Below are positions 1-20,037 of a stretch of DNA of 32,000 nucleotides, in pieces. Source of the DNA: Candidatus Heimdallarchaeota archaeon B3_Heim (GTDB lineage: Archaea > Asgardarchaeota > Heimdallarchaeia > Hodarchaeales > Hodarchaeaceae); NCBI GenBank assembly GCA_003144275.1, contig NJBF01000010.1, positions 1 to 32,000 on the forward strand, written 5' to 3'. The notes under the pieces were generated by a model. That model worked only from the letters and a program-made list of their open reading frames with translations, was not told the DNA's origin and did no database searches. Positions within the stretch are counted from its first letter, which is position 1, and every line of letters begins with the position of its first letter. Position numbers and translations under genes: made by a program.

Positions 1-125
1 AATTCAAAGCGTTTTTCTTTGAATGAAATCATCTAAAGACAAAAATCGTTCCCATAAAATCAGCTTGTTCCAATATCAGACAATTTATTAACTAAATATT
101 TCTACTTAGCGCGAAGTGAGCCGAA

Positions 126-1600: not shown

Positions 1601-1843
1601 GTGGCAATTAGAGGTGCTGACTTGAAAAAAAAGAGAACAGAAACATCCATATGGTTTAAATTTGCAGAAGAGGAGGGTTTAGATCCTCATAAGTCAGTTT
1701 GGGCAGATTATAGTGACAAAGAGATCCAATCGACTGATACGAAGAAAAAGCTACCTCAATTTCGATTTTGTACTCAATGTGGAGCTCAACTCTCTCCCGA
1801 ATCTCGTTTTTGCGAACGATGTGGAAATCATATTAAAAAATGA
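1601..1843 (+). CDS. small zinc-ribbon protein (C-terminal CxxC...CxxC)
   Basis: FCTQCGAQLSPESRFCERCG at the C-terminus. Confidence 0.75.
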   Translation: MAIRGADLKKKRTETSIWFKFAEEEGLDPHKSVWADYSDKEIQSTDTKKKLPQFRFCTQCGAQLSPESRFCERCGNHIKK

Positions 1844-1995
1844 TTCAGAAATGAATCGAATTTTAACACTAATCACTCCTAGATTGTAATAGGGGTGGTT
1901 AATACACCATAATTTTTTATCCTGATATATTTGTCTTAATAGCTCGTTAAATTTTCGTTTATACCACATGACGATATTAAGGAAGAGTTTAGCAC

Positions 1996-2505
1996 ATGAA
2001 AAATGAGGAAAATATCAATACATTTTTTTATCCCAACCCAGTTATCTTAGTATCAGCGAAACAAAACACAAATGAATCGATAATTACGCTCTCATGGGCA
2101 GGTACGTGTTGTTCAAATCCCCCAATAGTCTCAATAGGAGTAAGACCTGAACGGTATTCGTATGCTTTAATTAAAGAGTCAGAAGAATTTGTAATTAACT
2201 TTCCTACAGAAGCTTTGCTAGCCCAAGTAAAAATATGTGGAACTAAGTCAGGAAAAGATATCGATAAATGGAAAGAGTGTAATTTTTCAAGAGAGAAGAG
2301 TAGTAAAGTGAGCGTTCCTTCCATCAAAGAGTGTCCTGTTAATATGGAATGTGAGGTAGAACAAATTATTACTCTGGGAACGCATGATTTATTTCTTGCA
2401 AGGATCGTTGCTCTACACATTGATGATAAATGGAAAACCGAAGGGTATCCTGGAATGATTACTTATTCGCGGGGAAAATATGGAGTTGTAAAAGAAGTTT
2501 TGTAA
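1996..2505 (+). CDS. flavin reductase-like FMN-binding protein (DIM6/NTAB family)
   Basis: YPNPVILVS, LSWAG, NPPIVSIGVRPERYS, EFVINFP, CGTKSG, IKECPVNMEC, GTHDLFLARI. Confidence 0.9.
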   Translation: MKNEENINTFFYPNPVILVSAKQNTNESIITLSWAGTCCSNPPIVSIGVRPERYSYALIKESEEFVINFPTEALLAQVKICGTKSGKDIDKWKECNFSREKSSKVSVPSIKECPVNMECEVEQIITLGTHDLFLARIVALHIDDKWKTEGYPGMITYSRGKYGVVKEVL

Positions 2506-2582
2506 AAAAGATACAAACAAACGGCCTTACTTCAAGTAAAGCTAATTTGAAAGTAATTATATAGAGAATAGAGCAAACAAAA

Positions 2583-2765
2583 TTATCTTCGTCTTTCTTG
2601 ACGAAATTCTGGTTGACCAACTGGCATATCTCTCACGATTCTCTTTATATAATTCTTTTTATTGCGTAAGATGGGTGTTAGTCCTTTTCTTTTGCGCCCT
2701 TCTACTTTAGGGGTCTGATTTCGAACTTTTCCAGCTTTTGTAAGGCTTCCGTGACTACCTGCCAT
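2583..2765 (-). CDS. rps30e: small-subunit ribosomal protein eS30
   Basis: HGSLTKAGKVRNQTPKV signature; 60 aa, highly basic; archaeal/eukaryotic-specific protein. Confidence 0.96.
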   Translation of the reverse strand: MAGSHGSLTKAGKVRNQTPKVEGRKRKGLTPILRNKKNYIKRIVRDMPVGQPEFRQERRR

Positions 2766-2853
2766 AATAATTCACTCGTATAACGAATCTTCGTTATTCT
2801 ACTCTCTTTTCTAAATCCTTCTTAATGTTTTACTTTCTAGTTCTTACTTTGTC

Positions 2854-3813
2854 TCAAGAAGTGTAAAATTGAGACAGAACTTCCTGTGGGAGCTCTCCCT
2901 GAAGGACTAAGTATGTTTTATTCGCGAAACGGCTTAGAAGTTTGTTTTTCGTCTGAGTTATAATATTGAACCAAAAGGAGGGTAAAATGGAACTAGCGTA
3001 AAAAGAAGATAATTGGTCAATATAAGTTGGATTGTTTAACAATGAATTGTTATCATCAAAATCCATTTTTATTTGCTTAATCAGCCAAAGAGCAGCAATA
3101 GAAAATACCAATTGTGCATTTTCAATAGCTAGTTGCAATCCCACAGGACTCCAAACAAGCCAATTAAGAACCGAATTGAGAGATTTTCCTATCTCTTCAT
3201 CCTTTATTATACCTATAACTGTTTCATGTATAGATGGAAAAAATTGAGAAAAAGTGGAAAGAGTAACATCTGTCACAGCCTTCATCAAGAAATGGTCTTC
3301 AGAAGTGTGACGATAAAATTCTGTTTGCTCCCGTACTCGTGATGAGGGAATGTTAATGTAAGGATTATTTTTATCTATTTCTTCTCCCCAGTACACGTCG
3401 AAATGATTGCTAGTCTTGAGTAGAAGCCGTTCAACGGAGGAATTAGTGATGTTTGAATTTTTTGTTGAGTACCATTGAAAGCCTTTTCCCCGACAGGGAT
3501 GAATAGATACTAGAGTATCACTCTGGTTGAATCGCCAAAATATTAAAGGATAAATTAGGCATGTGAGAGGTTTAAGTGATGTGGTATGAAGTTGACAATG
3601 TCCTCCCTTGGTCAAGAACGGACATGAATTCCCACGAAGAATTATATCCCCATCTTCTGTGGATTGCAGGTAATACTGGTATTCTGGATATTCTTTAGAT
3701 AAATGATATTTTTCTGATCTACAAAGAGGCAGATTAAACTCAGTGGCACAGCATTTCATATGGCAGTCCGCGCATGTGTACCTGGTATATTCTGAAAAGC
3801 CTCTAATCAACAA
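2854..3813 (-). CDS. YkgJ-family cysteine-cluster (Zn/Fe-chelating) protein with C-terminal extension
   Basis: CADCHMKCC...CPFL...HCQLH...KPLTCLIYP...PC pattern; TTG start uncertain. Confidence 0.8.
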   Translation of the reverse strand: MLIRGFSEYTRYTCADCHMKCCATEFNLPLCRSEKYHLSKEYPEYQYYLQSTEDGDIILRGNSCPFLTKGGHCQLHTTSLKPLTCLIYPLIFWRFNQSDTLVSIHPCRGKGFQWYSTKNSNITNSSVERLLLKTSNHFDVYWGEEIDKNNPYINIPSSRVREQTEFYRHTSEDHFLMKAVTDVTLSTFSQFFPSIHETVIGIIKDEEIGKSLNSVLNWLVWSPVGLQLAIENAQLVFSIAALWLIKQIKMDFDDNNSLLNNPTYIDQLSSFYASSILPSFWFNIITQTKNKLLSRFANKTYLVLQGELPQEVLSQFYTS

Positions 3814-3954
3814 AGATGTGAACCTCGGTGAAGTATATTTATCTAGAAAAAGCTTACCTCGATTATATAGTGTTATTGGTTATCTATTATACGAAATAAC
3901 TCCCTTGATTTGATGGTATTAACATTCAGGAAGTTTGAGATAAAATAGAATTAA

Positions 3955-3990
3955 TGATTCGTCAGACGATTCATAAAATTATATTTAAAG
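3955..3990 (+). promoter_or_regulatory. candidate operator palindrome abutting a TATA-like element upstream of the BMC cluster
   Basis: TGATTCGTC-A-GACGATTCA (3955-3973, 8 of 9 pairs) directly followed by TAAAATTATATTTAAAG, about 60-70 nt before the ATG at 4047. Confidence 0.35.
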
Positions 3991-4046
3991 AGTGATAGTT
4001 TCACCTTTTGCTACTGAAATCTAAGTTGAAATAAAAAGGCCTTACA

Positions 4047-5903
4047 ATGATTGAAGAACATAGCCACAAATCAACAGGACTTCGTGGTGTTGAGGTTGCG
4101 GACACAAATATTTGCCTGATTGAAGGAGATAAAGGAAATCTTTTCATCCGAGGTTATGATATCAAAGATTTAGCAAAGAATTCAACTTACGAAGAAGTAG
4201 TATACTTACTTCTTTTTGGAAATTTACCTTCTTTTGATCAACTGAAATCTCTTCAAAACACAATTAGGTCAAATCAAGATCTACCTGCGGAATTGATTAC
4301 TCATCTACAGAAAACCACAAAAAATACGCCTTCGATGAGTGTACTTCAGTCATCCCTAGCCCTCTTAGCTGGTTATGATACTGAAGTTGAAAAAGAAACA
4401 AAAGAATCTAATCGCAATATTGCTATTAGGATTATTTCTCTATTACCTATAATTGTTACAGCATGGGAACGAATTAGGAATAATAAAGAACCAATATCTC
4501 CCAATAAGAATCTTTCTTATGCGGCGAATTTCCTGTATATGCTAAATGGAGAAATGCCAACAAAAGAAGAGGCGAGAATATTTGATGTATCGCTAATACT
4601 TCATGCCGAGCATTCTTTCAATGCATCGACATTTACTGCCAGAGTAATCGCCTCCACAGGAGCCGATCTCTATGCTTCAATTTCAGGAGCAATTGGTTCA
4701 TTATCTGGGAAATATCATGGAGGGGCGAATCATCTTGTTTATGAAAGTCTTTTAGAAATAAAAAAGATGTCAAATATTGAAGAATGGGTAAAGAACCGTT
4801 TTGATGATGGTAAACGAGTTATGGGAATGGGTCATGCAATTTATAAGACAATGGATCCGAGAGCTAAGATTCTAAAGGAAATGGCTTCAGAATTGGTGAA
4901 AAAACAAGGTGGATTAGCTCAATGGATGTATGATACAACAAATAAGATGGTTGAAATAACTCAAGCTGAATTTAAAAAACGGAAAAATAGGAGTATATAT
5001 CCAAATGTAGATTTGTACGGTGCTACAGTTTATACAAGTCTTAATATTCCTGTAGAGCTTTTCACTCCAATTTTTACTACGTCTAGAGTAGCTGGATGGG
5101 CTGCACATATTTTAGAAGAGAAATATCCAGAAACACCCACCGTTAAACCTGTGATTTATCGGCCTTCAGCTGACTACATAGGGAGATATTGTGGACCTTT
5201 AGGCTGTGAATTCACACCAATAACTCAGAGAAATGCAACAGCTAATGATAATAACTTAATAAGAAGATTAATTACTCAGGAACTCACTAAAATTCTCGAT
5301 GGTCATTTAATCCCAGTTTCATTATCTGCACGACATATTCATTTGAAGAAAGACGATTTTCATAGACTTTTTGGAGAAAAAAGTGATTTACATCCAATTA
5401 ATTCCTTGTCACAACCAAAAGAATTTGCTTGCGAAGAGGTAGTTGATCTAATTGGTCCAAAACGAGCAATCTATGGAGTTAGAGTCCTGGGTCCTTTCAG
5501 AAATGAAACTCAAATCGAAATTTCTCGTAGTGATGGATATGTTCTAGGAATCAATCCACCCACACGTCAATCAGGTGACTTGGAGGGGACTCCTGGAATT
5601 CATGTCATCGGACCGAAAGGAGCAATCAATTTAGAAAAGGGAGTTATATGCGCCGCACGACACATTCATATGTCACCAAAGGAAGCACAGAAACTAAACA
5701 TGTCTGATAAGCAAATGGTTGCGATTAAATTTTCTGGAACACGTGCTGGTATATTAGATGAAGCTATGACTAGAGTTCATCCTGATTACACTTTGGAACT
5801 ACATTTAGATCTAGATGAGGGTAATGCCCTCGCATTGAAAACAGGAGATATGGGAACGATCATTTCAGATTTTGAAAAGGAGTCATATTCCCCGTTCAGG
5901 TGA
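4047..5903 (+). CDS. citrate (or 2-methylcitrate) synthase fused to PduL-type phosphate acyltransferase
   Basis: N-part: GLRGV, HAEHSFNASTFTARV, HGGAN, GMGHAIYK..DPRA, PNVD, SRVAGWAAH. C-part from about 5310: IPVSLSARHIHL, LSQPKEF, TQIEISRSD, SGDLEGTPG, ARHIHM, HLDLDEGNA. Confidence 0.92.
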   Translation: MIEEHSHKSTGLRGVEVADTNICLIEGDKGNLFIRGYDIKDLAKNSTYEEVVYLLLFGNLPSFDQLKSLQNTIRSNQDLPAELITHLQKTTKNTPSMSVLQSSLALLAGYDTEVEKETKESNRNIAIRIISLLPIIVTAWERIRNNKEPISPNKNLSYAANFLYMLNGEMPTKEEARIFDVSLILHAEHSFNASTFTARVIASTGADLYASISGAIGSLSGKYHGGANHLVYESLLEIKKMSNIEEWVKNRFDDGKRVMGMGHAIYKTMDPRAKILKEMASELVKKQGGLAQWMYDTTNKMVEITQAEFKKRKNRSIYPNVDLYGATVYTSLNIPVELFTPIFTTSRVAGWAAHILEEKYPETPTVKPVIYRPSADYIGRYCGPLGCEFTPITQRNATANDNNLIRRLITQELTKILDGHLIPVSLSARHIHLKKDDFHRLFGEKSDLHPINSLSQPKEFACEEVVDLIGPKRAIYGVRVLGPFRNETQIEISRSDGYVLGINPPTRQSGDLEGTPGIHVIGPKGAINLEKGVICAARHIHMSPKEAQKLNMSDKQMVAIKFSGTRAGILDEAMTRVHPDYTLELHLDLDEGNALALKTGDMGTIISDFEKESYSPFR

Positions 5904-5907
5904 TATT

Positions 5908-6219
5908 ATGGATGCCTTAGGTTTCATGGAAACATGCGGTCGTATTGGAGCAATTATAGCCACGGACACGGCATTGAAAGCAGCGGATGTGAATTTAATA
6001 TCATTAAAACGAGTTTCTGGTGGTTTAGTCATAGTGATCATTGAAGGAGAAGTCGCTGCGGTTCACGAAGCAATCAGCGCAGCAAAAAATCAATTACGTC
6101 AAATTTCCTGTGGATTACTAACCAATGTTATTCCACGGCCAGATGAAGTGACAGTTGAACTCATTGAAAAATTCAGAATGCGTACCCCAAGTGTAAAGGA
6201 AGATCCTGGTAGAGATTGA
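5908..6219 (+). CDS. BMC-H shell hexamer protein
   Basis: MDALGFMETCG...DTALKAADV...EGEVAAV...VIPRP; start moved from 5872 to ATG 5908, which has AGGTGA at 5898-5903. Confidence 0.92.
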   Translation: MDALGFMETCGRIGAIIATDTALKAADVNLISLKRVSGGLVIVIIEGEVAAVHEAISAAKNQLRQISCGLLTNVIPRPDEVTVELIEKFRMRTPSVKEDPGRD

Positions 6220-6229
6220 CTAGAAGGTA

Positions 6230-6955
6230 ATGGTTATGGAAGAGAAAGAACTCGAATCACTTGTCACACAACAAGTAAGGAGCGCTCTCGGTAGTAACCA
6301 GAAACTAGGCCCCTATAATGTATTGGGTATTTTAACACATATGGGTCAAGGGTTGGAAGATTTATTTGAAGCTCTTATCAGGTTAGCTCAAAAAAACATG
6401 AATATTCTGATATGGACTAAAAAAGAAGTTAATGAAGCTTTGGAACTCACATCACGAGCCAGTTCAATTCCTACTATGGATATTATTGTCAATTCAACTG
6501 GAGATTTCTGTTTAAGCTTTTATAATGATCTCGAATCTATCATGTATGGTGCTTTTAGTTTTGAAATCGCAAACAAAGTTACTCTTTTAGAAGATTCGAA
6601 TTCAACTGTTAATTTATTACTCCAAGGATTATTATCTAAAATTCCAGTCTATATAGTTACACCATTTCCTCCAACAGATTTAACATTTGATTATGGTCCC
6701 TCAGGCATGCTAACGAATGAATTAAGTAAACGATTGTCTTTTCTAATAGAAATGGGATTTAGATTGGTTAATGTTGAAGATTTAGCTGATCAATTTGTGA
6801 AGCATACACCAGCTGTGCCAAATTTAATAACAGAAGACTATTTGGAAGGTTTAAAAGGAAAAAAACACGAAATATTTGTACCACATTCTACAATCATAAC
6901 ACCCTTAGCCCAAGAAAGGGCCAATACTCTTGATATTAAAATTATAAAGATTTAG
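6230..6955 (+). CDS. BMC-associated flavoprotein-like protein with N-terminal encapsulation peptide
   Basis: N-terminal amphipathic ELESLVTQQVRSAL; degenerate HFCD/flavoprotein-like core (IANKVTLL...LLQGLLSKIPVYIV); C-terminal LITED...IITPLAQERANTLDIKI motif of the kind seen in BMC-locus accessory proteins. Confidence 0.6.
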   Translation: MVMEEKELESLVTQQVRSALGSNQKLGPYNVLGILTHMGQGLEDLFEALIRLAQKNMNILIWTKKEVNEALELTSRASSIPTMDIIVNSTGDFCLSFYNDLESIMYGAFSFEIANKVTLLEDSNSTVNLLLQGLLSKIPVYIVTPFPPTDLTFDYGPSGMLTNELSKRLSFLIEMGFRLVNVEDLADQFVKHTPAVPNLITEDYLEGLKGKKHEIFVPHSTIITPLAQERANTLDIKIIKI

Positions 6956-6966
6956 GTGATAAAAAC

Positions 6967-7257
6967 ATGAAAGTATGTAAAGTCATTGGAAATGTAGTAA
7001 GCACTGAGAAAGATGAAGGGATTAAAGGTTTCAAACTCCTTATTGTCGAACCAGTGGATATGGTCGATCTGAAACCTGAGAGTGCTCCATTTGTAGCAAT
7101 CGATGCAGTAGGCGCGGGAGAGGATGAAGTTGTCTTAGTTGTTACTGGGAGTTCTTCTCGTTTAACTGCAATGACAAAAGATCGTCCAACTGATGCAACT
7201 ATTCAAGCAATAATTGATTTTATTCAAATAAAAGGAAAAGAAACGTATAGAAAATAA
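6967..7257 (+). CDS. BMC-P shell pentamer (EutN/CcmL family)
   Basis: MKVCKVIGNVVSTEK, AIDAVGAGEDEVVLVVTGSSSR, DATIQAIID; SD AGGTGA at 6954-6959. Confidence 0.95.
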   Translation: MKVCKVIGNVVSTEKDEGIKGFKLLIVEPVDMVDLKPESAPFVAIDAVGAGEDEVVLVVTGSSSRLTAMTKDRPTDATIQAIIDFIQIKGKETYRK

Positions 7258-7307
7258 TATTTTAAGTAATTCAATTAATATAATCTCATATAAGCGAAGG
7301 TAATTAA

Positions 7308-8735
7308 ATGACATATGATGAACAACAAATTGCCAAGATTGTCAATACTGTTGTGCAAAAAATACGCGCATACCAAGTCTATTCAGGTTTAGAAGATCTC
7401 CCCGCGATTGCTGGGGGAGGTATCTTTCAGGATATAGAACAAGCGATTGAAGCGGCAGAGAATAGTCAAATTACGCTAATGGCTCTCTCACTTGAAGAAC
7501 GTAAAGAGATTATTCAATCAATGCGCGAAACAGCGATTAAGCACTCTCGCTATCTAGCTGAATTAGCAATTCAAGAAACTAATCTTGGTCGATTAGAAGA
7601 TAAAGTTGCAAAAAATCTATTATGTGCACGTAAAACCCCAGGCCTAGAAGATTTGGTACCAAACACGTGGACAGGAGATAAGGGATTGACTCTTGTAGAG
7701 ATGGCTCCATACGGTGTAATTGGCTCCATAACACCCTCTACAAATCCAACTGCTACAGTAATCAATAATGGAATATCAATAGTCACGGCTGGAAATAGTG
7801 TCGTTTTTAATCCTCATCCTTCAGCGAAACGAGCAAGTAATGAAGCGGTTAGGTTATTAAATAGGGCTATTCTTGAAGCTGGAGGTCCAGAAAACGTACT
7901 AACATCAACAGTTTCTCCTTCAATAAAATCAGCTCAAATTCTTATGAAACATAAGAAGATACGGTGTCTTGTTGTGACGGGTGGAAGCGCAGTAGTAAAG
8001 GCCGCAATGCAATCTGGTAAGAAAGCAATATGTGCAGGGCCGGGAAATCCTCCTGTAATAGTTGATGATACTGCAGATATTCAAAAAGCCGCAAGAGGCA
8101 TAGTAGAGGGAGCAAGTTTTGATAACAACATTGTTTGTCTCGTAGAAAAAGAAGTTTTCGCATTTGATTCCATTACTGATCGGTTGAAAAGCGAAATGAA
8201 GCATTATGGTGCATATGAAATAACTGGAGATCAGATAAAACAATTGGAAAATCTTGTCTTCACAGGGAAAAAGGGAAGATTTCCAATTGTTAATAGGGAT
8301 TTCATAGGTAAGGATGCAAAAGTTCTTCTTGAGGGAATAGGCATTCAGGTTGGTGACAATATACGACTAATTATTGCAGAAGTTCCTGATGACGAGCATC
8401 CCTTTGTAATATCAGAAATGCTAATGCCTGTTTTACCAATAGTACGAGTCAAAACAATAGAAGAAGCTTTACAAAAAGCGAAAAAGGCAGAACATGGATT
8501 TAAGCATACAGCTATGATGTGGAGTGATTCTGTAGGAAATATGAGTCTTGTGGCAAAAAATATTGAAACAACAATTTTTGTGAAAAATGCTCCTTCGCTT
8601 GCAGGGATCGGTTTTGGAGGAGAGGGGTATACTACAATGACGATAGCTGGTCCTACAGGTGAAGGACTTACATCGGCAAAAACATTTACACGTCAGAGAA
8701 GATGTGTGCTTGTAGACGCGTTTAGAATAATTTAG
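7308..8735 (+). CDS. CoA-acylating aldehyde dehydrogenase (EutE/PduP family) with N-terminal encapsulation peptide
   Basis: PYGVIGSITPSTNP, GNSVVFNPHP, VTGG, AGPGNPP, FDNNIVCLVEKE (catalytic Cys), EMLMPVLP, IAGPTGEGLTSAKTFTRQRRC. Confidence 0.95.
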   Translation: MTYDEQQIAKIVNTVVQKIRAYQVYSGLEDLPAIAGGGIFQDIEQAIEAAENSQITLMALSLEERKEIIQSMRETAIKHSRYLAELAIQETNLGRLEDKVAKNLLCARKTPGLEDLVPNTWTGDKGLTLVEMAPYGVIGSITPSTNPTATVINNGISIVTAGNSVVFNPHPSAKRASNEAVRLLNRAILEAGGPENVLTSTVSPSIKSAQILMKHKKIRCLVVTGGSAVVKAAMQSGKKAICAGPGNPPVIVDDTADIQKAARGIVEGASFDNNIVCLVEKEVFAFDSITDRLKSEMKHYGAYEITGDQIKQLENLVFTGKKGRFPIVNRDFIGKDAKVLLEGIGIQVGDNIRLIIAEVPDDEHPFVISEMLMPVLPIVRVKTIEEALQKAKKAEHGFKHTAMMWSDSVGNMSLVAKNIETTIFVKNAPSLAGIGFGGEGYTTMTIAGPTGEGLTSAKTFTRQRRCVLVDAFRII

Positions 8736-8759
8736 GATAATGAAAAGAGGCAGACTTAG

Positions 8760-10085
8760 TTGAGTTCTGATATCGCAGAGATGGCACGCAGTTCCGGTAT
8801 AGTCGGAGCAGGTGGAGCTGGTTTTCCTACCCATGTGAAACTTTCTGCGAAGGTAGATACTTACATTGTCAATGCGGCTGAATGTGAACCTCTCTTAAGA
8901 GTTGATCAACAATTAATGCAGAAATATCCAGAAAAGTTGATAACTGGATTACAACTAGGGATGAAAGCCACAGGGGCAAAAAGAGGTATCATTGCTATAA
9001 AAAGAAAATATAAGTCTGCAATTAAAAAGGTAAAGCAAGCTATCAAAACTGATTCGCGTCTAGAGATTTTTCTATTAGAGGATGTATATCCTGCTGGAGA
9101 TGAGCACGTTCTCGTTTATGAAGCTTTAGGAAAGACAATTCCTGAAAGTGGACTTCCTCTCGATATAGGGGCTGTGGTGAATAATGTTTATACATTAATA
9201 AATCTTGCTGATGCCTCTGAAGGAAAATCGATAGTTTCACGATATGTTACTGTCACAGGTGCAGTAAAAAAACCTGTAACTATGGATTTCCCAATTGGTA
9301 CCTCGATCTTGGATACTATCAAAGCAGCAGGTGGAGCAACGATCGATAATTTTGAAGTATTGATTAATGGACCAATGATGGGAAGTCTTATTGACCCTAA
9401 AAAGCCTATAACAAAGTTAACTTCAGGAGTAATCGTTTTACCAGAGGATCATTTTGTTATTCGAATGAAAAATGAACGTATCTCCTCAAAGGTCATTGTT
9501 ACCAAGGCAGCTTGCATACGCTGCCAGTTGTGCACAGAAGTATGCCCACGATTTCTCCTAGGTCATCAATTATATCCCGATAAGGTCATGCGAGGGATTG
9601 CATGGGGAGCTCCAGAGAGACCCGAGTATATGACAGGAACATTCCTCTGTGTGGAATGTGGTGCATGTACATATTATGGCTGTCCCATGGGCTTAGATCC
9701 TTGTAAAATGATGACAGAAGTCAAAGGTCAGTTGAGAGTAGAGGGATTAAAAAATACTCATAATCGAAAAGTCTTATCGATTCATCCTGAGAGGGAATAT
9801 CGAAAACTACCTGTAAAGAGATTAATGTCTAGGTTGGATTTACTCAATTATGACAATGAGTGTCCAATTCGAAAGCGGAAATTACAGATTCGAGAAGTTT
9901 CAATACCTCTCAAACAACATATCGGTGATCCTGCTATTCCCATCGTGAAGGTAGGAGAAACGGTAAAAAAAGGCGTACTCATTGGAAAGATTCCTGATGG
10001 GTCACTTGGCGCGGTAATTCACGCTAGTATAAGTGGAATTATCCGACATATTGGACAAGAAATTGTCATTGAAAAAACAAAATAA
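8760..10085 (+). CDS. pduS: PduS/RnfC-like flavin, 2x[4Fe-4S] oxidoreductase
   Basis: [72 protein letters not shown]; TTG start. Confidence 0.88.
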
Positions 10086-10110
10086 GAAACATACAAATGG
10101 TGAAATAAAA

Positions 10111-10389
10111 ATGGCTAAAGAAGCACTTGGATTAATAGAAACAAAAGGATTAGTTGCGTCTATTGAAGCAGCTGATGCAATGGTGAAAGCTGCGAACGTT
10201 CATTTATTGGGACGTGAAGTTATTGGAGGCGGTTATGTCACTGTGATGGTTAGAGGTGATGTAGGTGCAGTTAAAGCTTCCGTTGAAGCTGGTGCAGTTG
10301 CTGCGCGAAAAATTGGTGAGTTAGCTTCAGCACATGTAATCCCCCGTCCTCATGATGAAGTCGAGAGCATTCTTCCCAAGAAAGGATGA
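10111..10389 (+). CDS. BMC-H shell hexamer protein (PduA/EutM-like, probable major shell protein)
   Basis: [27 protein letters not shown]...[15 protein letters not shown]...HVIPRPH; start moved from 10033 to ATG 10111, which has GGTGA at 10099-10103. Confidence 0.97.
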
Positions 10390-10396
10390 GTGTAAG

Positions 10397-10421
10397 ATTA
10401 GCTGCAGAACGAGCAGCTAAT
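10397..10421 (+). promoter_or_regulatory. intergenic stem-loop after the BMC-H gene
   Basis: ATTAGCTGC-agaacga-GCAGCTAAT, perfect 9-bp stem, no following U-tract. Confidence 0.4.
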
Positions 10422-10466
10422 ATTCACTACTTTCATCTCTGTTAACAATCTTAGAGGTAAAATCAG

Positions 10467-11012
10467 ATGCGTGCAATAGGAGTTCTAGAAACAAATGTAA
10501 TAGCTCGTGGTATATTGAGTGCAGATACAATAGTCAAAACTGCAGATGTAAAGCTATTATTTGCATCACCAGTATGCCCTGGGAAATATCTCATAATTAT
10601 TCAAGGAGCCGTTGCAGCTGTTAAAAGCTCCTTACTTGCTGGAAGTGAAATTGCTGGAGAAACACTAGTAAATTATACAGTAATACCAAATATTCATCCA
10701 GAAGTCTTTCCAGCAATTGCAGGGTCAACTGGTATCGATAAAGTGGGGGCAATAGGAGTGGTTGAAACTTATTCTGCTCCAACAGCTATTATGGTTGGCG
10801 ATGAGGCTGTTAAAAGTGCACAAGTACGACTAATCGAAATTCGGATGAGTCGTGCCATAGGTGGAAAGGCTTTCGTAGTCTTAACAGGAGAAGTCGGTGC
10901 AGTGCGAGCAGCTGTAGATGCTGGTGTTAATCGCGTAAAAGGTGAAGGATTAATATTATCTATGGCAATAATTCCCGCTCCTCATCCAGATTTAGTAAAA
11001 ACTCTCCTATAA
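10467..11012 (+). CDS. pduT: BMC-T tandem-domain shell protein, PduT-like
   Basis: Two BMC domains (AIGVLET...GAVAAV; GAIGVVET...GEVGAV...IPAPH); VCPGKY with Cys37 matching the PduT Fe-S-binding Cys. Confidence 0.9.
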   Translation: MRAIGVLETNVIARGILSADTIVKTADVKLLFASPVCPGKYLIIIQGAVAAVKSSLLAGSEIAGETLVNYTVIPNIHPEVFPAIAGSTGIDKVGAIGVVETYSAPTAIMVGDEAVKSAQVRLIEIRMSRAIGGKAFVVLTGEVGAVRAAVDAGVNRVKGEGLILSMAIIPAPHPDLVKTLL

Positions 11013-11038
11013 AAATAGTTTAAACAAGCTGAAGTCAG

Positions 11039-11497
11039 ATGAAGAAAATAATAATTGGATCCGATCATGGTGGGTTTCATCTTAAGAATGATTTAATGAA
11101 ATTTCTTAAAGGTTTGGGATACGAAGTTTCAGATTATGGGTGCTATTCTACAGACCCTGTTGATTATCCTGACATCGCTTTATTAGTAGCACAAACAGTA
11201 GCTGTCTCGTTGGAATCTTTTGGAATTCTTATTGATGGAACAGGTGTTGCTAGTGCAATTGTGGCAAATAAAATCAAAGGTATAAGAGCAACTCCGTGTA
11301 CTGACGAATTTACTGCCAATTCTGCTCGCGAACATAATAATTCCAATATCCTAACTTTAGGGGCTAGAGTTATTGGTCCTGGGATAGCGCAGAATATTGT
11401 GAAGATTTGGTTAACTACTCACTTTGGTGGGGGAAGACATGAAACAAGAGTGAATAAAATTACTGAGATTGAATTGAAATATCTAAAATCAGCGTGA
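11039..11497 (+). CDS. rpiB: RpiB/LacAB-family sugar-phosphate isomerase
   Basis: GSDHGG, VDYPD, ANKIKGIRA, AREHNNSNILTLGARVIG, FGGGRH; canonical CGTG is DGTG here. Confidence 0.9.
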   Translation: MKKIIIGSDHGGFHLKNDLMKFLKGLGYEVSDYGCYSTDPVDYPDIALLVAQTVAVSLESFGILIDGTGVASAIVANKIKGIRATPCTDEFTANSAREHNNSNILTLGARVIGPGIAQNIVKIWLTTHFGGGRHETRVNKITEIELKYLKSA

Positions 11498-11501
11498 TCT
11501 T

Positions 11502-12056
11502 ATGAAACTTGGTAAAGTAATAGGAAATGTAGTTGCTACAACAAAAGACCCGGGTCTCAATACTTTAAGGCTTTTAGTGGTTCAAGGTTTAGACGATAAC
11601 CTACAACCTCTTGGAAATCCATATGTTGCAGCAGACGGAATTGAAACAGCTGGTCCAGGAGATATCGTCTATGTTGTCAGTAAAAAAGAAGCGGCAATTG
11701 TATTTCCAAAAGAACTAGTTCCAATCGATGAGTGTATTGTCGGATATGTAGAGGAATATTACGTTACGAAAAGCGCAAAACGGAAGCCACAGAAGATACA
11801 AACGAGGAAATCACCTCCACCAACAATTAAACCTCTTGACGAAATTCCCGAAATAAAATCTGACGAAATTCCAGTAGAAACTACGGCCAAACCTATCCCT
11901 AAAACTAAGATAATACCAACAGAAGTAGAAGAGATAACGAAACCAATACCTAAATCAAGGACTAGAACAAAACCTAGATCAAAAGCAACTAGGACAAAAA
12001 AGACAAGAAAAATTAAAGAAAAACAACCTACTTCAAAAGGAAGTGAATCAGAATGA
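11502..12056 (+). CDS. BMC-P shell pentamer with 96-aa Lys/Arg/Pro-rich C-terminal tail
   Basis: MKLGKVIGNVVATTK...AADGIETAGPGDIV...IDECIVGYVE (residues 1-88), then a low-complexity tail. Confidence 0.9.
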   Translation: MKLGKVIGNVVATTKDPGLNTLRLLVVQGLDDNLQPLGNPYVAADGIETAGPGDIVYVVSKKEAAIVFPKELVPIDECIVGYVEEYYVTKSAKRKPQKIQTRKSPPPTIKPLDEIPEIKSDEIPVETTAKPIPKTKIIPTEVEEITKPIPKSRTRTKPRSKATRTKKTRKIKEKQPTSKGSESE

Positions 12057-12340
12057 TTCTTGCTAAGGTTATCGGCAATGTTGTCGCTCCGGTAAAGACT
12101 AGAAGTCATGAAAATGGAAAAATTTTGGTAGTCCGTCCGATAGATATGAAAGGACAATTTACTGAACCATCATTTATCGCGATAGATGTAGCAAGAGCTG
12201 GTATAGGGGATTGTGTTCTCATTATTCGAGAAGGAAATTCTATTCGGAATATAATGAAAGATAATCAAGCAGCAGTCGATGCGTTGATAATAGGTGTTGT
12301 TGATTACGTCCAAGTAGACGGTAAGAATAGTGAATTATAA
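12053..12340 (+). CDS. BMC-P shell pentamer (EutN/CcmL family)
   Basis: MILAKVIGNVV, AIDVARAGIGDCVLIIREG, VDALIIGVVD; ATGA overlap with the previous stop. Confidence 0.93.
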   Translation: MILAKVIGNVVAPVKTRSHENGKILVVRPIDMKGQFTEPSFIAIDVARAGIGDCVLIIREGNSIRNIMKDNQAAVDALIIGVVDYVQVDGKNSEL

Positions 12341-12363
12341 ATAGATAAGTGAAGGTGTAGGAA

Positions 12364-13812
12364 ATGAGTAATGAGATGATTCAAAAAATAACTGAAGAAG
12401 TGATGAGAAAATTAAATCAAGAGGATCTCTCCCCGGTCAAACAAACCAATCTAAATATACAGTCTTCCAAGAAGAATCTTAATTATACCATTTCATCTGG
12501 AAAATCAGCATTAATTTTACTTTGTGGAGGAAATAAAGAAATACAGGAAGTCATGCGACAAATCGAAATCATATCTAAAGCGTATACACATACTTACGTC
12601 GTTATGACACATGCAGCAATAAAATTAATCGGGATACCCGATATTAGAAAAGTCTCCGAAGGAGCAACAATTATCACAGAATTTTCTGAAGAGTATTTTG
12701 ACGATATTTTGGGACGGGTTGATGTTATTTATGTACCTATACTATCCTTAAATACAGCAGCAAAAGTTGCACTGTTAAATGCTGATTCTCTAGGAACTAT
12801 TACACTAGTTTTTGGTTTAATGTACGGAAAACCTGTAATTGCTGCTCATAATTCCATTTACTGCTGTCAAATTGAAAAAGAACAAGTACCACCTATTATG
12901 ATTCGACGTATTGAAGGAATTATTGATCAGTTGACATCAATGGGAATAACTATGGTAAATATCCATAGTTTATCAGACCAACAACCTTCCCCTTATACTC
13001 CAACAACACCTGAGCGCTCATATACGGTTGGAACTGCAGGAAAAGATATTGGCTTAGATGGAAAATCACAAGTTGCTGTCAAAGCATTAGTCAATGGAGG
13101 AGCAGCAAGAATAACTTCGGAGACTGGAATCAATGGTTATGACATGGACCTAGCTCAATATATTGATCATACTAATTTACGAGCAGATGCAACAGAGGAT
13201 GAAATTAAGCAGTTGTGTGAAGAAGCAGCTAATTACAAATTTGCGTCAGTTTGTATAAATCCCACAAATGTTTCAAAAGCTGCTAAAATTTTGAAGGGTA
13301 GTTCGGTAAAAGTCTGTACTGTTATAGGTTTTCCTTTAGGTGCGACAACCCCAACTGTTAAGGCAATAGAAACCCGTGATGCAGTAGCAAATGGTGCTGA
13401 GGAGGTAGATATGGTTATTAATGTTGGAGCGTTGAAGTCGGGAAATGACGATCTCGTGCGCGAGGATATCGAAGCCGTTGTAAATGCTGCTGCTGGGAAG
13501 GCAATTGTTAAAGTTATCCTTGAAACTGCTCTATTAACAAAAGAACAAATCGTTAAAGGTAGCTTATTCACAAAATTGAGCGGGGCCGACTTTGTAAAAA
13601 CCTCAACAGGGTTTAGTACAGCAGGAGCTTTAGTCGAGGATATAGCTCTCATGCGAAAGACTGTGGGGCCAGAAATGGGAATAAAGGCTGCTGGAGGGAT
13701 TAGAACACATGAAATTGCAGAAGACATGATTAAAGCAGGCGCAACTCGAATTGGAGCTTCTGCCTCGATAGCTATTGTTAAAGAGACTGATACGAAGTCA
13801 GGTAAGTACTAG
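12364..13812 (+). CDS. deoC: encapsulation peptide + flavoprotein-like domain fused to deoxyribose-phosphate aldolase
   Basis: N: [13 protein letters not shown]; middle: [13 protein letters not shown]...GKPVIAA; C: [55 protein letters not shown]. Confidence 0.93.
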
Positions 13813-13822
13813 AGGGTATTGG

Positions 13823-15001
13823 TTGATTATCCTAACCATTAATTCAGGTTCTTCATCTCTAAAATATTCAATTTACCAAATGGAGAATCGTAAAATTTTA
13901 GCAAAAGGATTAGTGGAAAGAATAGGTCTCTCCAATCCTCATATTTCTCATAATAGCGAAGCTAAAGAGATTAAGGAACAGATAAAGTGTAATAACCATG
14001 AAGATGCCATAAGTTATGTATTAAACTTCTTTAATTTACACGAAGTTGATGCAGTGGCGCATAGGGTAGTACATGGAGGAGAAAGATTTCAGAAAGAGGT
14101 AATCATTGACACAAAGGTTGAATCTGAAATAGAAAACCTTTCTGAATTGGCCCCACTTCATAATCCCGCAAATCTAATAGGAATTCGAGCTTGTCAAAAA
14201 ATGCTTCCAGATATTCCACATGTAGCAATATTTGATACATCTTTTCATAATACTATTCCAGAGTATGCTTTTCGTTATGCAATCCCAGCAAAATGGCATA
14301 TAGAAAAATCCTTTAGAAGATATGGTTTTCATGGTACTTCCGTTGAATTTGTAACAAGTAGAACTATTGAAATTCTAGGATTGGAGAATAGTCGACGGAT
14401 AATTGTATTACATCTTGGAAATGGAGCATCAATAACTGCTGTGCGCAATGGTGAGTCTATTGATACAAGCATGGGCTTAACTCCTCTCGAAGGCCTTATT
14501 ATGGGGACACGTTCAGGGGATATCGATCCAGGTCTTATACTTGCTATGATGCGATCACAGAAAATGTCAGTCGACCAAATAGATCAAGAACTCAACACTA
14601 AGAGTGGCTTGCTAGGAATAACTGGTAAATTCAGAGATATGAGGGAGATTCAGATTAATGCCCAAGAAGGAAACTCTGCAGCACAATTAGCAATCCAGAT
14701 GGCAGTTTATCGGATACAAAAATATATTGGTGCATATTTTGTCGCCTTGGGTGGTCTAGATGCCATTGTATTTACAGGGGGAATAGGGGAAAGGTCTTCT
14801 TATTTCCGAAATTCTATCGTCAAAGGATTAGGGAGTCTGGGTATACTACTAGATCATTCTAAAAATAAAACTTCAGATGGAGAGGAAGAAGAAATAATTT
14901 CTTCTTTAGAATCTAAAACTCAAGTATTAGTAATTCCAACTAATGAAGAATATATGATGGCCTTAAAAACTCTGAAATTGTTGGCAATAGAGAGTAAGTA
15001 A
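13823..15001 (+). CDS. ackA: acetate/propionate kinase
   Basis: INSGSSSLKY, HRVVHGG, APLHNP, FDTSFH, RRYGFHGTS, HLGNGAS, TSMGLTPLEG, FTGGIGE, IPTNEE; start placed at TTG 13823 after GAGGGT. Confidence 0.95.
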   Translation: MIILTINSGSSSLKYSIYQMENRKILAKGLVERIGLSNPHISHNSEAKEIKEQIKCNNHEDAISYVLNFFNLHEVDAVAHRVVHGGERFQKEVIIDTKVESEIENLSELAPLHNPANLIGIRACQKMLPDIPHVAIFDTSFHNTIPEYAFRYAIPAKWHIEKSFRRYGFHGTSVEFVTSRTIEILGLENSRRIIVLHLGNGASITAVRNGESIDTSMGLTPLEGLIMGTRSGDIDPGLILAMMRSQKMSVDQIDQELNTKSGLLGITGKFRDMREIQINAQEGNSAAQLAIQMAVYRIQKYIGAYFVALGGLDAIVFTGGIGERSSYFRNSIVKGLGSLGILLDHSKNKTSDGEEEEIISSLESKTQVLVIPTNEEYMMALKTLKLLAIESK

Positions 15002-15026
15002 GCCTTTAGCTTTTCGGGGTATATTT

Positions 15027-16169
15027 TTAAGTTTTGAAGTCCTTGGGTAGGCCGATTTGACGAGCTATTATTTCACTCAGTTTATCTGAACGTGGACGTG
15101 AATCAGTAAGAAATTCCTCTAGATTAATTTCAACCTGTTTTAATTTCTCTCTCTCATCAGAATGTAGATTACCTTTAGATATGTGATATTCAAAAAACTT
15201 GCATGCCAATTGAGGAGCTTTTGTCATTTGGATTATATCCTCATCTGGAAGCATTCGAATTCTATAAAAGGTTTGATTTACACGAGAATCAAAAATGTGG
15301 CTTTTAGGATGAACAATAGCGGTTAAATAACTTCTCCCTTGTGTTACATCGTCCTCCTCCATCCAGATATCACTTCCAAAAGACCACATTTCATAATCTA
15401 TTCCCCATATTCGTGATGCTTTTTTATTTTTGTCCATTTGAACTAAGTAGTTACCAGCATTTCGATCAGGATCATTTAACCAAATATCAAATGGTAATAG
15501 AAGATAAGCATCATCAATGCTTTGTATTGCAGCAAAACCAGCATCTAAATCGGCCTTTTGATCATCTAAGTATTCATCGATATTCTTACTATCAGGAATT
15601 TTCTCTTGGAGGAGAGCTAAGACATCAACGGCTTTCTTACGATTACTTTTTTTGGCTAATACTTCCTCAAAGCGATCTGAAGTAGTTAAAGATCCAATTT
15701 CACGTTCTGAAAAATGATAAAATTCTTCAGCTGAATCCCCTTCATCTTCCTCCTCATCTAAAATTATAACATCATCCTCTCTAAGGATTGTAGTAGATTT
15801 GAGTACAAATTTGGAAACTTTCCGAGAACAAATTAGATGTGTTTCTGGTACATTTAAATATAATCGTCTCCCAAGACGCGAAGCAGTCATCTCGTTTAAA
15901 GCTCGCCATAAATGAAGACGATCTCGGCTACGTTCGGGAGTATCTTGGATATCTACTTCCAAGTCTGATACTTTTTTTACGTCAAAGTCGATAATGTGAG
16001 AAAACACTTTTAGAAGCCACTCTTTCCCTTGATGGTCAACGAGAATCGTGGCTTTTCCATGTTGGCCAGCTGCAGACAGAGTTTTATCAGAAAGTTTTAA
16101 TTTATTCTTGATGTTTATTCGTTTATCATCTGTGTAAAGAACTAAATCCCATTCAGACATAATAATCAT
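15027..16169 (-). CDS. HipA-like / PI3-PI4-kinase-like atypical kinase
   Basis: WLLKVF (beta-3 Lys), NEMTASRLGRRLYLNVPET (alpha-C), FDIWLNDPDRNAGNYL (catalytic loop), IWGIDYE; start may be ATG 16160. Confidence 0.72.
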   Translation of the reverse strand: MIIMSEWDLVLYTDDKRINIKNKLKLSDKTLSAAGQHGKATILVDHQGKEWLLKVFSHIIDFDVKKVSDLEVDIQDTPERSRDRLHLWRALNEMTASRLGRRLYLNVPETHLICSRKVSKFVLKSTTILREDDVIILDEEEDEGDSAEEFYHFSEREIGSLTTSDRFEEVLAKKSNRKKAVDVLALLQEKIPDSKNIDEYLDDQKADLDAGFAAIQSIDDAYLLLPFDIWLNDPDRNAGNYLVQMDKNKKASRIWGIDYEMWSFGSDIWMEEDDVTQGRSYLTAIVHPKSHIFDSRVNQTFYRIRMLPDEDIIQMTKAPQLACKFFEYHISKGNLHSDEREKLKQVEINLEEFLTDSRPRSDKLSEIIARQIGLPKDFKT

Positions 16170-16222
16170 CCCTAAAATATGAGATAAATTAGTTCTTGAA
16201 AGGAATAGATTATTAAAAAACT

Positions 16223-18361
16223 TTAGCTTACTTTCGTCCCATTAGAGACATCTTTATCAGGAATCAATAATCCTAAATCTTTACCTTCTACTGCTGCAAG
16301 AAGCATTCCTTCAGATCTAACACCACGAATGGTTGCAGGTTCTAAATTAACAATAACTGTAATTTTTTGATCTATCAATTCTTCAGCATTGCGGAAAGAT
16401 GCGAGTCCAGCTACCAATTGTCTTTCTCCAATTTCTTCTCCTAAATCAACCCTTATCTTAAGGAGATTTTTGGCTTTAGTTATTTTTTCGGCTTTTCTAA
16501 TTGTTCCTATTCGGATATCAAGTTTTTCAAAATCTTTGAATGGAATAATTCTTCTATCTGGCAATTTTTTCACCTTTTTTGTCTTTTTACTTTGTTTTCT
16601 ATGAATATCCTCAAGTTGTTTCTGTATCTTTTCTCTCTCAATTTTAGCGAATAGGGGTTTGGATTCTAGTATTTCAGAACCAGGATTTAATTTGAGTTTT
16701 CCTGCCTCACTTAAAAGCTGATTATGGACGCTTCCCTTCTGTTTAAGCACTTTCCATATTCTAGTGGCCGAATCAGGTATGATTGGTGATAGCAAAATAC
16801 TTAGTGTAGCAACTGATTGAACACAAAGATATAAAGTGGTTTCTACTGCAGTAATATCAGTTTTTATTAATTTCCAAGGTTCTTTTGAACTCAAATACCC
16901 ATTAGCTGTTCGTGCAAAATCAATTATGGCACTAGTTGCCTTCTTAAATTCAAAATTGTCAAAATTATCAGCAACAGATTCGGGAACAGTGTGAATAGCA
17001 GAAACAAATTCTCTATCCGTAGCATCTAATCTGTGACATTCAGGAATCTTACCTTCGAAATATTTGTGTAGTAAAACAAAAACTCGATGAATATAATTTC
17101 CCAAAACGTCATTGAGATCGCTATTCACACGTTGTTCTAATTCAGGCCATGTAAAAGAAGTATCTTTAATTTCAGGGCGAGTTGCAGCCAAATAATATCT
17201 CCAATAATCAGTTGGTAGAAGTTTAGCTGCCTCATCAATCCAGATACCAACACCTCGAGATTTACTGAATTTTTTATCATCAAATATAAGAAATTCAGTA
17301 GTGCTCACATTGTAGGGGAGAACAAATGGATCACCGTAGCTATCCTTCGTTCCTAAAAGGAGTGCTGGAAAAAGGAGAGTATGAAAGAAGATATTATCCT
17401 TACCAATAAAGAAAATAGTACGAGTATCTTGATCAAGCCAAAATTGCTTCCAATAGTCTGGATCTTTGTATAAGCGTAGTCCAAGTTCGGCTGAAGCAGA
17501 AACATATCCTAAAACCGCCTCTAGCCATACATAAATTGATTTTCCCTCTGCTTCAGGTATTGCAGGGCCCGCAGGAATCCCCCATGCTAAATCTCGAGTT
17601 AAAGTTCTTGCTTGTAACCCCTCCTCCAGAATATGGTTGGAAAATTTTCGTGCATTATCAGGAAAGTTTTGATTTCGGTGTATGAAATCAGTCAATTCTT
17701 CTTGAAAAGCACCAAAATTATAATACCACTGGGTTGTGGACTTAAACACTGGAGGTTTTCCACAAATTTTGCATAAAGGACTGATTAATTCAACTGGACG
17801 AAGTGGTTTACCACAAGCTGGAGAATCACACTGATCACCTCGTGCTCCCGGGGTTTTACAATGCGGACAAGTCCCTTCAACAAATCGATCTGGTAAAAAT
17901 CGCTTATCTGTTTCACAGTACAATTGGTCAATCTCTTTACTAAATATAAATCCGTTTTCGAAACATCGACGGTAGAAATCCTGTACCCATTGATAATGGA
18001 AAGAATTAGCAGTTTTTGAATAGTTGAGATCAATATTCCATGTGTGGAGTAACTCTAGAATTTGAATGTGATGACGATTAACTAGCTCTTCAGGCGAAAT
18101 TCCTTCAGTTAGAGCCGCAACTTCAATCGGTGTCCCGTGACAATCCGAACCAGTTGCTGAAATTACATTTGCTCCGCGGAGCTTCAAGTAACGAACATAA
18201 ATATCAGCACTGAGTAGGTGTAAAACTGTTCCAAGATGGGGAACGGCGTTAACATATGGCCATGCAGGACACACAACAAATTTCTTATCAGTTAAATCTT
18301 CCAGGAGAGACACATCCAAAATAATGGCTAGTTTTTTTACGAAAATGATTATTAAGTACAA
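16223..18361 (-). CDS. metG: methionyl-tRNA synthetase with C-terminal tRNA-binding OB domain
   Basis: PYVNAVPHLG (HIGH-like), GSDCHGTPI, Zn knuckles (CPHC...GDQCD...CKICG), YVWLEA, FIGKDNIFFH, KFSKS, then LDIRIGTI...LEPATIRGVRSEGMLLA; true start probably GTG 18313. Confidence 0.97.
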   Translation of the reverse strand: MYLIIIFVKKLAIILDVSLLEDLTDKKFVVCPAWPYVNAVPHLGTVLHLLSADIYVRYLKLRGANVISATGSDCHGTPIEVAALTEGISPEELVNRHHIQILELLHTWNIDLNYSKTANSFHYQWVQDFYRRCFENGFIFSKEIDQLYCETDKRFLPDRFVEGTCPHCKTPGARGDQCDSPACGKPLRPVELISPLCKICGKPPVFKSTTQWYYNFGAFQEELTDFIHRNQNFPDNARKFSNHILEEGLQARTLTRDLAWGIPAGPAIPEAEGKSIYVWLEAVLGYVSASAELGLRLYKDPDYWKQFWLDQDTRTIFFIGKDNIFFHTLLFPALLLGTKDSYGDPFVLPYNVSTTEFLIFDDKKFSKSRGVGIWIDEAAKLLPTDYWRYYLAATRPEIKDTSFTWPELEQRVNSDLNDVLGNYIHRVFVLLHKYFEGKIPECHRLDATDREFVSAIHTVPESVADNFDNFEFKKATSAIIDFARTANGYLSSKEPWKLIKTDITAVETTLYLCVQSVATLSILLSPIIPDSATRIWKVLKQKGSVHNQLLSEAGKLKLNPGSEILESKPLFAKIEREKIQKQLEDIHRKQSKKTKKVKKLPDRRIIPFKDFEKLDIRIGTIRKAEKITKAKNLLKIRVDLGEEIGERQLVAGLASFRNAEELIDQKITVIVNLEPATIRGVRSEGMLLAAVEGKDLGLLIPDKDVSNGTKVS

Positions 18362-20030: not shown

Positions 20031-20037
20031 ATGGAAT

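Follow-up and report, generated by a model that had tools for sequence, protein, structure and literature searches.

A sugar-phosphate-utilisation metabolosome operon in the chromosome of a Hodarchaeales archaeon

Positions 4047 to 15001 (plus strand) of a 32,000-nucleotide stretch of DNA from Candidatus Heimdallarchaeota archaeon B3_Heim (GCA_003144275.1, contig NJBF01000010.1, positions 1 to 32,000; hereafter the window) hold an operon of 13 genes. This operon very probably encodes a type I archaeal microcompartment (AMC) of Hodarchaeales, a metabolosome of the sugar-phosphate-utilisation (SPU) class that is bacterial in ancestry, long resident in its host and vertically inherited within the lineage. 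A preliminary description, made from the sequence alone, had proposed an SPU-class metabolosome operon in a genuine Asgard chromosome, and the gene families, the relatives of the host and the synteny of the junctions all supported this proposal. Protein-shelled metabolic organelles were once regarded as exclusive to bacteria. Finding them in the archaeal order that is closest to eukaryotes is relevant to the degree of compartmentalisation in that lineage, a point that is already in the literature and backed by biochemistry.

Operon layout and shell genes

The window takes up the first 32 kb of a contig (93,451 bp) in a genome assembly of 3.95 Mb (103 contigs, approximately 94% estimated completeness, 3.9% estimated contamination). 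The list of open reading frames (ORFs) bore out the 13 co-oriented genes of the preliminary description. All lie on one strand and are tightly packed, with spacings of at most 77 nt and three overlapping pairs, two of which cease to overlap when likelier start codons are chosen. Likely true starts of BMC-H1 (5908), BMC-H2 (10111) and acetate kinase (13823) were read from the sequence. Pfam and NCBIfam profile searches assigned 12 of the 13 genes far above thresholds. The operon and its upstream region comprise the following features:

3814–4046, plus: divergent intergenic region, AT-rich, with a TATA-like stretch (AAAATTATATTTAAA) approximately 55–70 nt upstream of the ATG; a candidate archaeal promoter
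4047–5903, plus: fusion of citrate synthase (CS) and PduL, 618 amino acids (PF00285, E 7e-123, residues 11–395; PF06130, E 7e-69, residues 422–606)
5908–6219, plus: BMC-H1 shell hexamer (PF00936, E 3e-21; ORF open from 5872, likely start ATG 5908)
6230–6955, plus: 'DUF' cargo or assembly protein, 241 amino acids, with an amphipathic helix at the N-terminus, followed by a degenerate flavoprotein-fold domain and, at the C-terminus, an 'ITPLA' module of PduM/eut_hyp type
6967–7257, plus: BMC-P1 shell vertex pentamer (PF03319, E 1e-28)
7308–8735, plus: CoA-acylating aldehyde dehydrogenase (AldDH) of the EutE/PduP type (NF011927, 658 bits), with an N-terminal encapsulation-peptide-like helix
8760–10085, plus: PduS-like metabolosome NADH dehydrogenase (Complex1_51K FMN domain, SLBB, Fer4 with two 4Fe-4S motifs, RnfC_N barrel; NCBIfam rnfC subfamily)
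10111–10389, plus: BMC-H2 shell hexamer (PF00936, E 6e-29; ORF open from 10033, likely start ATG 10111)
10467–11012, plus: single-stack, PduT-like BMC-T (Ts), with two BMC domains and a CPGK cysteine (TIGR02526, E 8e-35)
11039–11497, plus: SPU-type RpiB-family protein (PF02502, E 1e-52; Asp66; His99 equivalent kept)
11502–12056, plus: BMC-P2 (PF03319, E 6e-21), a pentamer domain at residues 1 to approximately 90 followed by a tail
12053–12340, plus: BMC-P3 shell vertex (PF03319, E 2e-21)
12364–13812, plus: Flav-DERA, 482 amino acids, consisting of a helix, a flavoprotein-like domain (residues approximately 45–205), a linker and DERA (residues 263–472; TIGR00126, 288 bits)
13823–15001, plus: acetate kinase, AckA (PF00871, E 7e-138; ORF open from 13775, TTG 13823 giving the usual N-terminus)

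Two single-domain proteins and one tandem protein of PF00936, together with three proteins of PF03319, are found within 11 kb, as befits a bacterial-microcompartment (BMC) locus. The full shell set that had been claimed (two BMC-H, a PduT-like BMC-T and three BMC-P) was recovered in this way by Pfam and NCBIfam, and a profile search of the 3.95-Mb genome showed the four BMC domains of the operon to be its only ones. The CPGK cysteine of PduT-type proteins, which is present in Ts, ligates a 4Fe-4S cluster. BMC-P2 ends in a tail of 93 amino acids that is rich in K, R, P and T and carries a net charge of +14. Four amphipathic, encapsulation-peptide-like helices with a shared pattern were read from the sequence; three are N-terminal (in AldDH, the DUF protein and Flav-DERA) and the fourth lies in the linker of CS-PduL.

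An acylating AldDH (NF011927), PduL and a PduS-like protein make up a metabolosome core. All core members named in the preliminary description (AldDH, PduL, AckA and PduS) were present, but PduL does not stand alone, being fused to citrate synthase. Similarly, the DeoC and RpiB families were found as described, but DeoC carries an N-terminal extension of 260 amino acids and, in RpiB, the catalytic Cys66 is replaced by Asp. The earlier reading had overlooked the CS-PduL fusion, the flavoprotein-like arm of DERA, the Pfam-less 241-residue gene, the BMC-P2 tail and Asp66 of RpiB.

Host, assembly integrity and distribution

The host is a member of Hodarchaeales, as judged from its nearest relatives and from the Asgard signature genes on the same 93-kb contig. 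The nearest loci (92–96% for Ts and AldDH) come from records labelled Candidatus Hodarchaeota, Hodarchaeales or Heimdallarchaeota.

Joining or binning of a bacterial BMC locus with archaeal sequence would be an alternative explanation for such an operon. Every component has bacterial relatives at 40–65% identity, the window begins at a contig end, and the assembly consists of 103 contigs with an estimated contamination of 3.9%. However, tblastn searches with the window proteins showed a gene order common to the relatives, in which genes for a zinc-ribbon protein, ribosomal protein eS30 and a hypothetical protein of 319 amino acids precede the operon and those for a hypothetical protein of 380 amino acids and methionyl-tRNA synthetase (MetRS) follow it. 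This synteny was seen in at least seven other Hodarchaeales records: CP070760.1 and CP070695.1, both at chromosome level, YT5_056, three YT isolates and DZ3S.51, whose record stops within the operon and shows the left junction only. Both junctions recur in independent assemblies of several studies, and the worry of a chimera is answered because their synteny is conserved in chromosome-level records. The contig also carries genes for eS30, a tRNA, MetRS, ubiquitin and ESCRT proteins, and the GC content of the cluster (0.377) fits that of the genome (0.361). Operon and flanks diverge in parallel, with identities in a close and a distant relative of 94 and 75% for AldDH and 85 and 72% for MetRS. 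Logan contigs from four metagenome runs yielded short fragments of related strains (90–99% alike), among them a contig from an independent run that bridges the right junction (14015–16270); no piece bridging the left junction was among those listed from the four runs. An assembly or binning artefact is effectively refuted and retains next to no probability.

BMC-P genes were found in 8 of the 24 species genomes of the order, always as a set of three. Two further archaeal records were observed. In GCA_048885365.1 (JBHLPY010000010.1, 10001–21426; locus L170), labelled Odinarchaeota, the same operon has different flanks, with heterodisulfide-reductase-like Fe-S genes upstream and an Arf GTPase gene downstream. 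A second, distant archaeal microcompartment locus (CAZSUE010000258.1, 'uncultured archaeon'; locus L098) encodes an AldDH that is 54–55% and a Ts that is 56% identical to those of the window; it may belong to one of the lineages, Thermoplasmatota or DPANN, that the preprint on AMCs names (PMC12747264).

Cargo enzymes

The PduL domain of the CS-PduL fusion scored 242 bits against NF011652 (cut-off 209), and the linker between the two domains holds the amphipathic, encapsulation-peptide-like helix NNLIRRLITQELTKILDG. The motifs HAEH, GHAIYK and NVDLY, read from the citrate synthase translation by itself, are taken by us to be the stretches that hold the catalytic His, His and Asp of citrate synthases. 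CS and PduL are encoded by one fused gene in most relatives and by separate genes in loci L021 and L170; in L170, the citrate synthase has 496 amino acids and an ITPLA tail, and PTAC is encoded separately. The fused citrate synthase could provide a second exit for CoA recycling, from acetyl-CoA to citrate. Elsewhere in the genome, outside the operon, lie three further genes (C100:28301-29395, C61:18426-19058 and C11:61016-61750): one for a citrate synthase that shares 37% identity with the fused enzyme, one for another DeoC-family aldolase, with 44% identity to the DERA domain, and one for a citryl-CoA-lyase-like protein.

In AldDH, the Cys at residue 277 was invariant in the alignment and is presumably the catalytic cysteine. 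The RpiB-family protein has Asp where aligned solved RpiB proteins have Cys in a 'CGTG' stretch, a cysteine that corresponds to Cys66 of the E. coli enzyme (PMC11585597). This Asp was found in all 80 of the 80 BMC-linked homologues in the loci that were fetched. For bacterial SPU systems, it was reported in 2024 that the Asp66 RPI has negligible ribose-5-phosphate isomerase activity and forms complexes with DERA (PMC11585597). By analogy, the RpiB-family protein of the window is probably a partner of DERA rather than a ribose-5-phosphate isomerase.

The DERA domain far exceeded the TIGR00126 cut-off (288 against 117 bits), which identifies the signature enzyme of the SPU class. A phmmer comparison with solved DERA gave an E-value of 1.8e-81, with two stretches aligned identically, among them VKTSTGF; we take these to be the sites of the catalytic Asp and two Lys residues. 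The 260-residue arm that precedes this domain combines an amphipathic helix with a domain that bears a flavoprotein signature and weakly matches PF02441 (E 0.017). Stand-alone bacterial homologues of the Flav domain match CoaBC/flavoprotein models. Such homologues, 26–32% identical and with the same N-terminal helix, were observed in loci L110, L111 (Sporomusa, approximately 7880–8470), L124, L151 and L100. In Bacillota loci without DERA, they lie approximately 1.5 kb upstream of the BMC AldDH gene, so that the flavoprotein-like module is not specific to SPU systems. In L170, the Flav-DERA frame, which the gene caller had split, includes a CxxxxCxxCxxC motif that is absent from the window protein.

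T-runs occur downstream of the stop codon of the acetate kinase gene. In the chromosome-level record CP070695.1 (loci L022/L097), the whole operon is present minus AckA, and the gene for the 380-residue flanking protein directly follows Flav-DERA.

The 241-residue DUF protein

No Pfam family matched the 241-residue DUF protein, and only 14 representatives at E ≤ 1e-3 were found among 1.84 billion proteins. Its remote relatives match TIGR02536 (eut_hyp; E-values down to 2e-11) and PduM. Compared directly with TIGR02536, the DUF protein itself scored 16 bits against a cut-off of 152.6 and, by this curated threshold, lies outside the family. An hhalign comparison aligned it with the Flav domain of DERA at 98.8% probability (E 1e-16) over 188 columns that include the N-terminal helix. 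In the AlphaFold2 model (pLDDT 79), a helix is formed by residues 5–21. Foldseek searches with this model retrieved UbiX/CoaBC flavoproteins from the PDB and the AlphaFold DB, with the predicted Salmonella PduM at rank 4 (E 1.8e-4). The flavoprotein signature of the DUF protein is degenerate (SFEIANKV versus SLNTAAKV), and flavin binding is therefore doubtful.

The C-terminal 'LITE...ITPLA' module of the DUF protein recurs at the C-terminus of long citrate synthases that stand alone in sister operons. A resemblance of this module to the E3-binding domain is weak and below threshold, and is taken as a hint only. On the evidence of these profile and fold comparisons, the DUF protein is a diverged paralogue of the Flav domain of DERA with a PduM-like C-terminal module.

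Origins of the operon and its citrate synthase

In a tree of AldDH sequences, those from Asgard archaea fall into a single clade (support 99) that is nested among bacterial SPU AldDHs, with the archaeal metagenome-assembled genome of locus L098 as sister to the Hodarchaeales clade. This topology is consistent with an acquisition from bacteria before the spread within Hodarchaeales. A published claim names Myxococcota as the donor; no Myxococcota locus was among those retrieved by pattern-limited scans.

In the citrate synthase tree, the operon-borne enzymes, whether fused to PduL or long and stand-alone, group in a single clade (support 97) nested among stand-alone enzymes encoded in tricarboxylic-acid (TCA) cycle contexts. 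One of these relatives, labelled Bathyarchaeia, is encoded between isocitrate dehydrogenase and fumarase, and the gene for another adjoins succinyl-CoA ligase; the only named members are archaeal. The housekeeping citrate synthase of the genome and all sampled bacterial enzymes fall outside, the bacterial sample being biased and not including the proposed Myxococcota donors. No citrate synthase gene was found in the operons of the bacterial SPU loci that were fetched. These results suggest that the operon gained its citrate synthase from a source of TCA type, possibly an archaeal one. Recent duplication of the housekeeping enzyme of the host was rejected, as the two citrate synthases are only 37% identical. 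Citrate synthase P0073 with its adjoining aldehyde dehydrogenase was likewise rejected as a shell-less precursor, this dehydrogenase being 21% identical to the microcompartment AldDH.

A tentative extension of these observations, possible but on balance doubtful, is that the operon is mosaic in its evolution and that its extras beyond the shell carry reusable docking modules: the paralogous DUF and Flav domains, the ITPLA module and the recruited TCA-type citrate synthase. An encapsulation helix would precede the flavoprotein-fold module in the DUF protein and another that in the arm of DERA, and citrate synthase would have been hooked in first by the ITPLA module and later by fusion to the encapsulation peptide of PduL. 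If true, a bacterial organelle would have been remodelled by its archaeal host through the grafting of a TCA-type enzyme, and the ITPLA module would be a general cargo- or scaffold-docking device of metabolosomes.

Proposed function

For the pathway in vivo, the export of electrons and the source of the substrate, the following scheme is inferred. Six shell proteins (H1, H2, Ts and P1–P3) would build a polyhedral shell, with cargo recruited via the amphipathic helices at the N-termini of AldDH, DUF and Flav-DERA and in the CS-PduL linker. DERA would cleave deoxyribose-5-phosphate with confinement of the aldehyde, and the acylating AldDH would convert the trapped acetaldehyde to acetyl-CoA and NADH. 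The PduS-like flavo-iron-sulfur protein and the Fe-S-bearing Ts tile could export electrons and regenerate NAD+. Recycling of CoA may proceed by two routes, one via PduL to acetyl-phosphate and then via AckA, which is probably located outside the shell, to acetate and ATP, the other via citrate synthase to citrate. The Asp66 'RpiB' would most likely be a non-isomerising partner of DERA, and the basic tail of P2 may bind nucleic acid at the shell surface. Four nucleoside-phosphorylase-family genes in the genome could feed the pathway.

Several points weigh against this reading. The system occurs in only 8 of the order's 24 species genomes, and no RNA run for the genome is listed among the sequencing runs. 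An RpiB-family protein that lacks the catalytic cysteine renders the textbook sugar-phosphate step doubtful, and the absence of AckA from the CP070695.1 locus implies that the acetate/ATP branch is dispensable. The published evidence for assembly was obtained with an orthologue, in vitro and in E. coli rather than in an archaeal cell (PMC12747264). Roles for the flavoprotein-like domain, the DUF protein and the encapsulated citrate synthase are hypothetical, and the last of these would need entry of oxaloacetate and exit of citrate.

The patchy distribution, the loss of AckA in one lineage and the absence of the catalytic cysteine from RpiB might also be expected of a decaying relic, that is, an operon gained from bacteria that has fallen out of use. 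However, none of the 13 ORFs is disrupted in the window or in relatives, with protein identities of 44–96% over a genus-level spread. Asp66 is a conserved trait of all SPU systems and not a sign of decay, and transcription in a cultured strain has been reported (PMC12747264). Decay is accordingly regarded as very improbable. A more serious contender, rated slightly below an even chance, concerns the output of the compartment. Its main products would be reducing power and citrate instead of acetate and ATP, with citrate synthase as the principal recycler of CoA, PduL and AckA as auxiliaries, and electrons leaving via the PduS-like/Ts pair into a respiratory chain, in line with the 'bioenergetic engine' reading of the preprint. 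Citrate synthase occurs in every Hodarchaeales locus examined and is fused to PduL in the window, the PduS-like protein and the Fe-S Ts occur without exception, the complete CP070695.1 locus lacks AckA, and modelling in the preprint argues for such an output (PMC12747264). Nevertheless, PduL matches citrate synthase in its conservation and most loci retain AckA, passage of oxaloacetate and citrate across the shell and the electron acceptor are hypothetical, and the flux estimates are exclusively model-based.

Flanking and eukaryote-signature genes

The operon is flanked by the following genes, of which those for E2 to Vps28 (19578–31906) form a dense group of eukaryote-signature genes:

1249–1343, plus: intron-bearing tRNA, anticodon CAU (Rfam RF00005, 46.2 bits; approximately 19-nt insert after position 37)
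2583–2765, minus: ribosomal protein eS30 (NF006817, E 4e-20; syntenic in all relatives)
2854–3813, minus: protein of 319 amino acids, no Pfam family, left neighbour of the operon
15027–16169, minus: protein of 380 amino acids, no Pfam family, right neighbour of the operon
16223–18361, minus: MetRS with C-terminal tRNA-binding domain (Pfam; syntenic in relatives)
19578: E2
22655: RING protein
23579: Arf-like GTPase
24329: KaiC-like ATPase
25309: ubiquitin
25748: E1
26817, minus: zinc-ribbon Yip1-domain protein
28070: Ras-like GTPase with an N-terminal extension of 210 amino acids
29477: UEV/E2-like protein
30230: Vps28

The ubiquitin and ESCRT genes that had been reported on this sequence were identified as E2, RING, ubiquitin, E1, UEV-like and Vps28. 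As for the archaeal flank markers, eS30, the intron-bearing tRNA and MetRS stood. For the bulge-helix-bulge geometry ascribed to the tRNA intron, neither folding nor inspection by eye revealed a convincing example, the minimum-free-energy structure containing only a 5-bp intron hairpin. This tRNA was missed by ARAGORN and by a whole-window Rfam search at gathering thresholds, and was recovered only by a permissive Rfam scan of positions 1–4100. Its end pair is A1:U72 and its anticodon stem is rich in G-C pairs; we take both to be initiator-like features, and the tRNA looks like an initiator tRNA-Met.

The 319- and 380-residue neighbours keep their positions in Hodarchaeales loci with the same flanks (the right end is missing from L020, and L170 has other flanks). 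The 319-residue protein begins with a Cys-rich CxxCxxxCC motif and shows weak FliB/DUF3109-like matches.

Comparison with known systems

Bacterial SPU loci (PMC8217296, PMC11585597) share with the window DERA, the Asp66 RPI, AldDH, PduL, a PduS homologue and a shell of H, T and P proteins, and DERA activity and a DERA-RPI complex have been demonstrated in a bacterial SPU system (PMC11585597). Identities to SPU loci of Bacillota, Chloroflexota and Elusimicrobiota were 40–65%. In contrast to the window, the bacterial SPU loci that were fetched encode no operon citrate synthase, no 241-residue DUF protein and no Flav-DERA fusion; the host of the window is archaeal, and its P2 has a basic, disordered tail. 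PduM/TIGR02536 proteins of Pdu and Gram-positive Eut loci have the C-terminal 'LxTE...ITPLA' module in common with the DUF protein, whereas the main domain of the latter has a UbiX/CoaBC-like fold with a degenerate signature, and kinship is traced via intermediates and fold only.

The preliminary description had left it possible that the system was unreported; it has, however, already been published with experiments. Du et al. (bioRxiv, November 2025; PMC12747264) surveyed 111 Hodarchaeales genomes, described 'archaeal microcompartments' in 66 of them and classed these as SPU metabolosomes. A companion preprint cites their work. Their type I operon comprises two H, one Ts and three P genes, CS and PTAC (fused in some lineages), a Flav+DERA fusion, a 'DUF' protein, MNdh with a CPGK Ts, RPI and AK (PMC12747264). 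Shell assembly was shown in vitro and in E. coli by transmission electron microscopy for the orthologous operon of GCA_003144275; helix-dependent recruitment of cargo was demonstrated on orthologues, the orthologous P2 tail binds DNA and RNA, transcription of the operon was reported in a cultured strain, and a transfer from Myxococcota (B64-G9 / HGW-17) was inferred (PMC12747264).

Additions of the present analysis are minor and testable: the homology of the DUF protein to the Flav domain, the shared PduM-like module and the affinity of the citrate synthase to TCA-context enzymes. These homology links are starting points for questions about the flavoprotein-like module, the packed citrate synthase and the cysteine-less RpiB. 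In the window, a third H gene is absent, no ORF matches PF00121 (triosephosphate isomerase) or PF00596 (class II aldolase), and a K/R-rich P2 tail, the 482-residue Flav-DERA and a 618-residue CS-PTAC are present, as in type I. The host order, the content and order of the 13 genes, the P1...Ts, P2, P3 spacing, the fusions, the DUF gene, the P2 tail, the CPGK Ts, RPI and AK all match the published type I AMC (PMC12747264), with no substantive difference, and the operon of the window is one more verified member of this described system.

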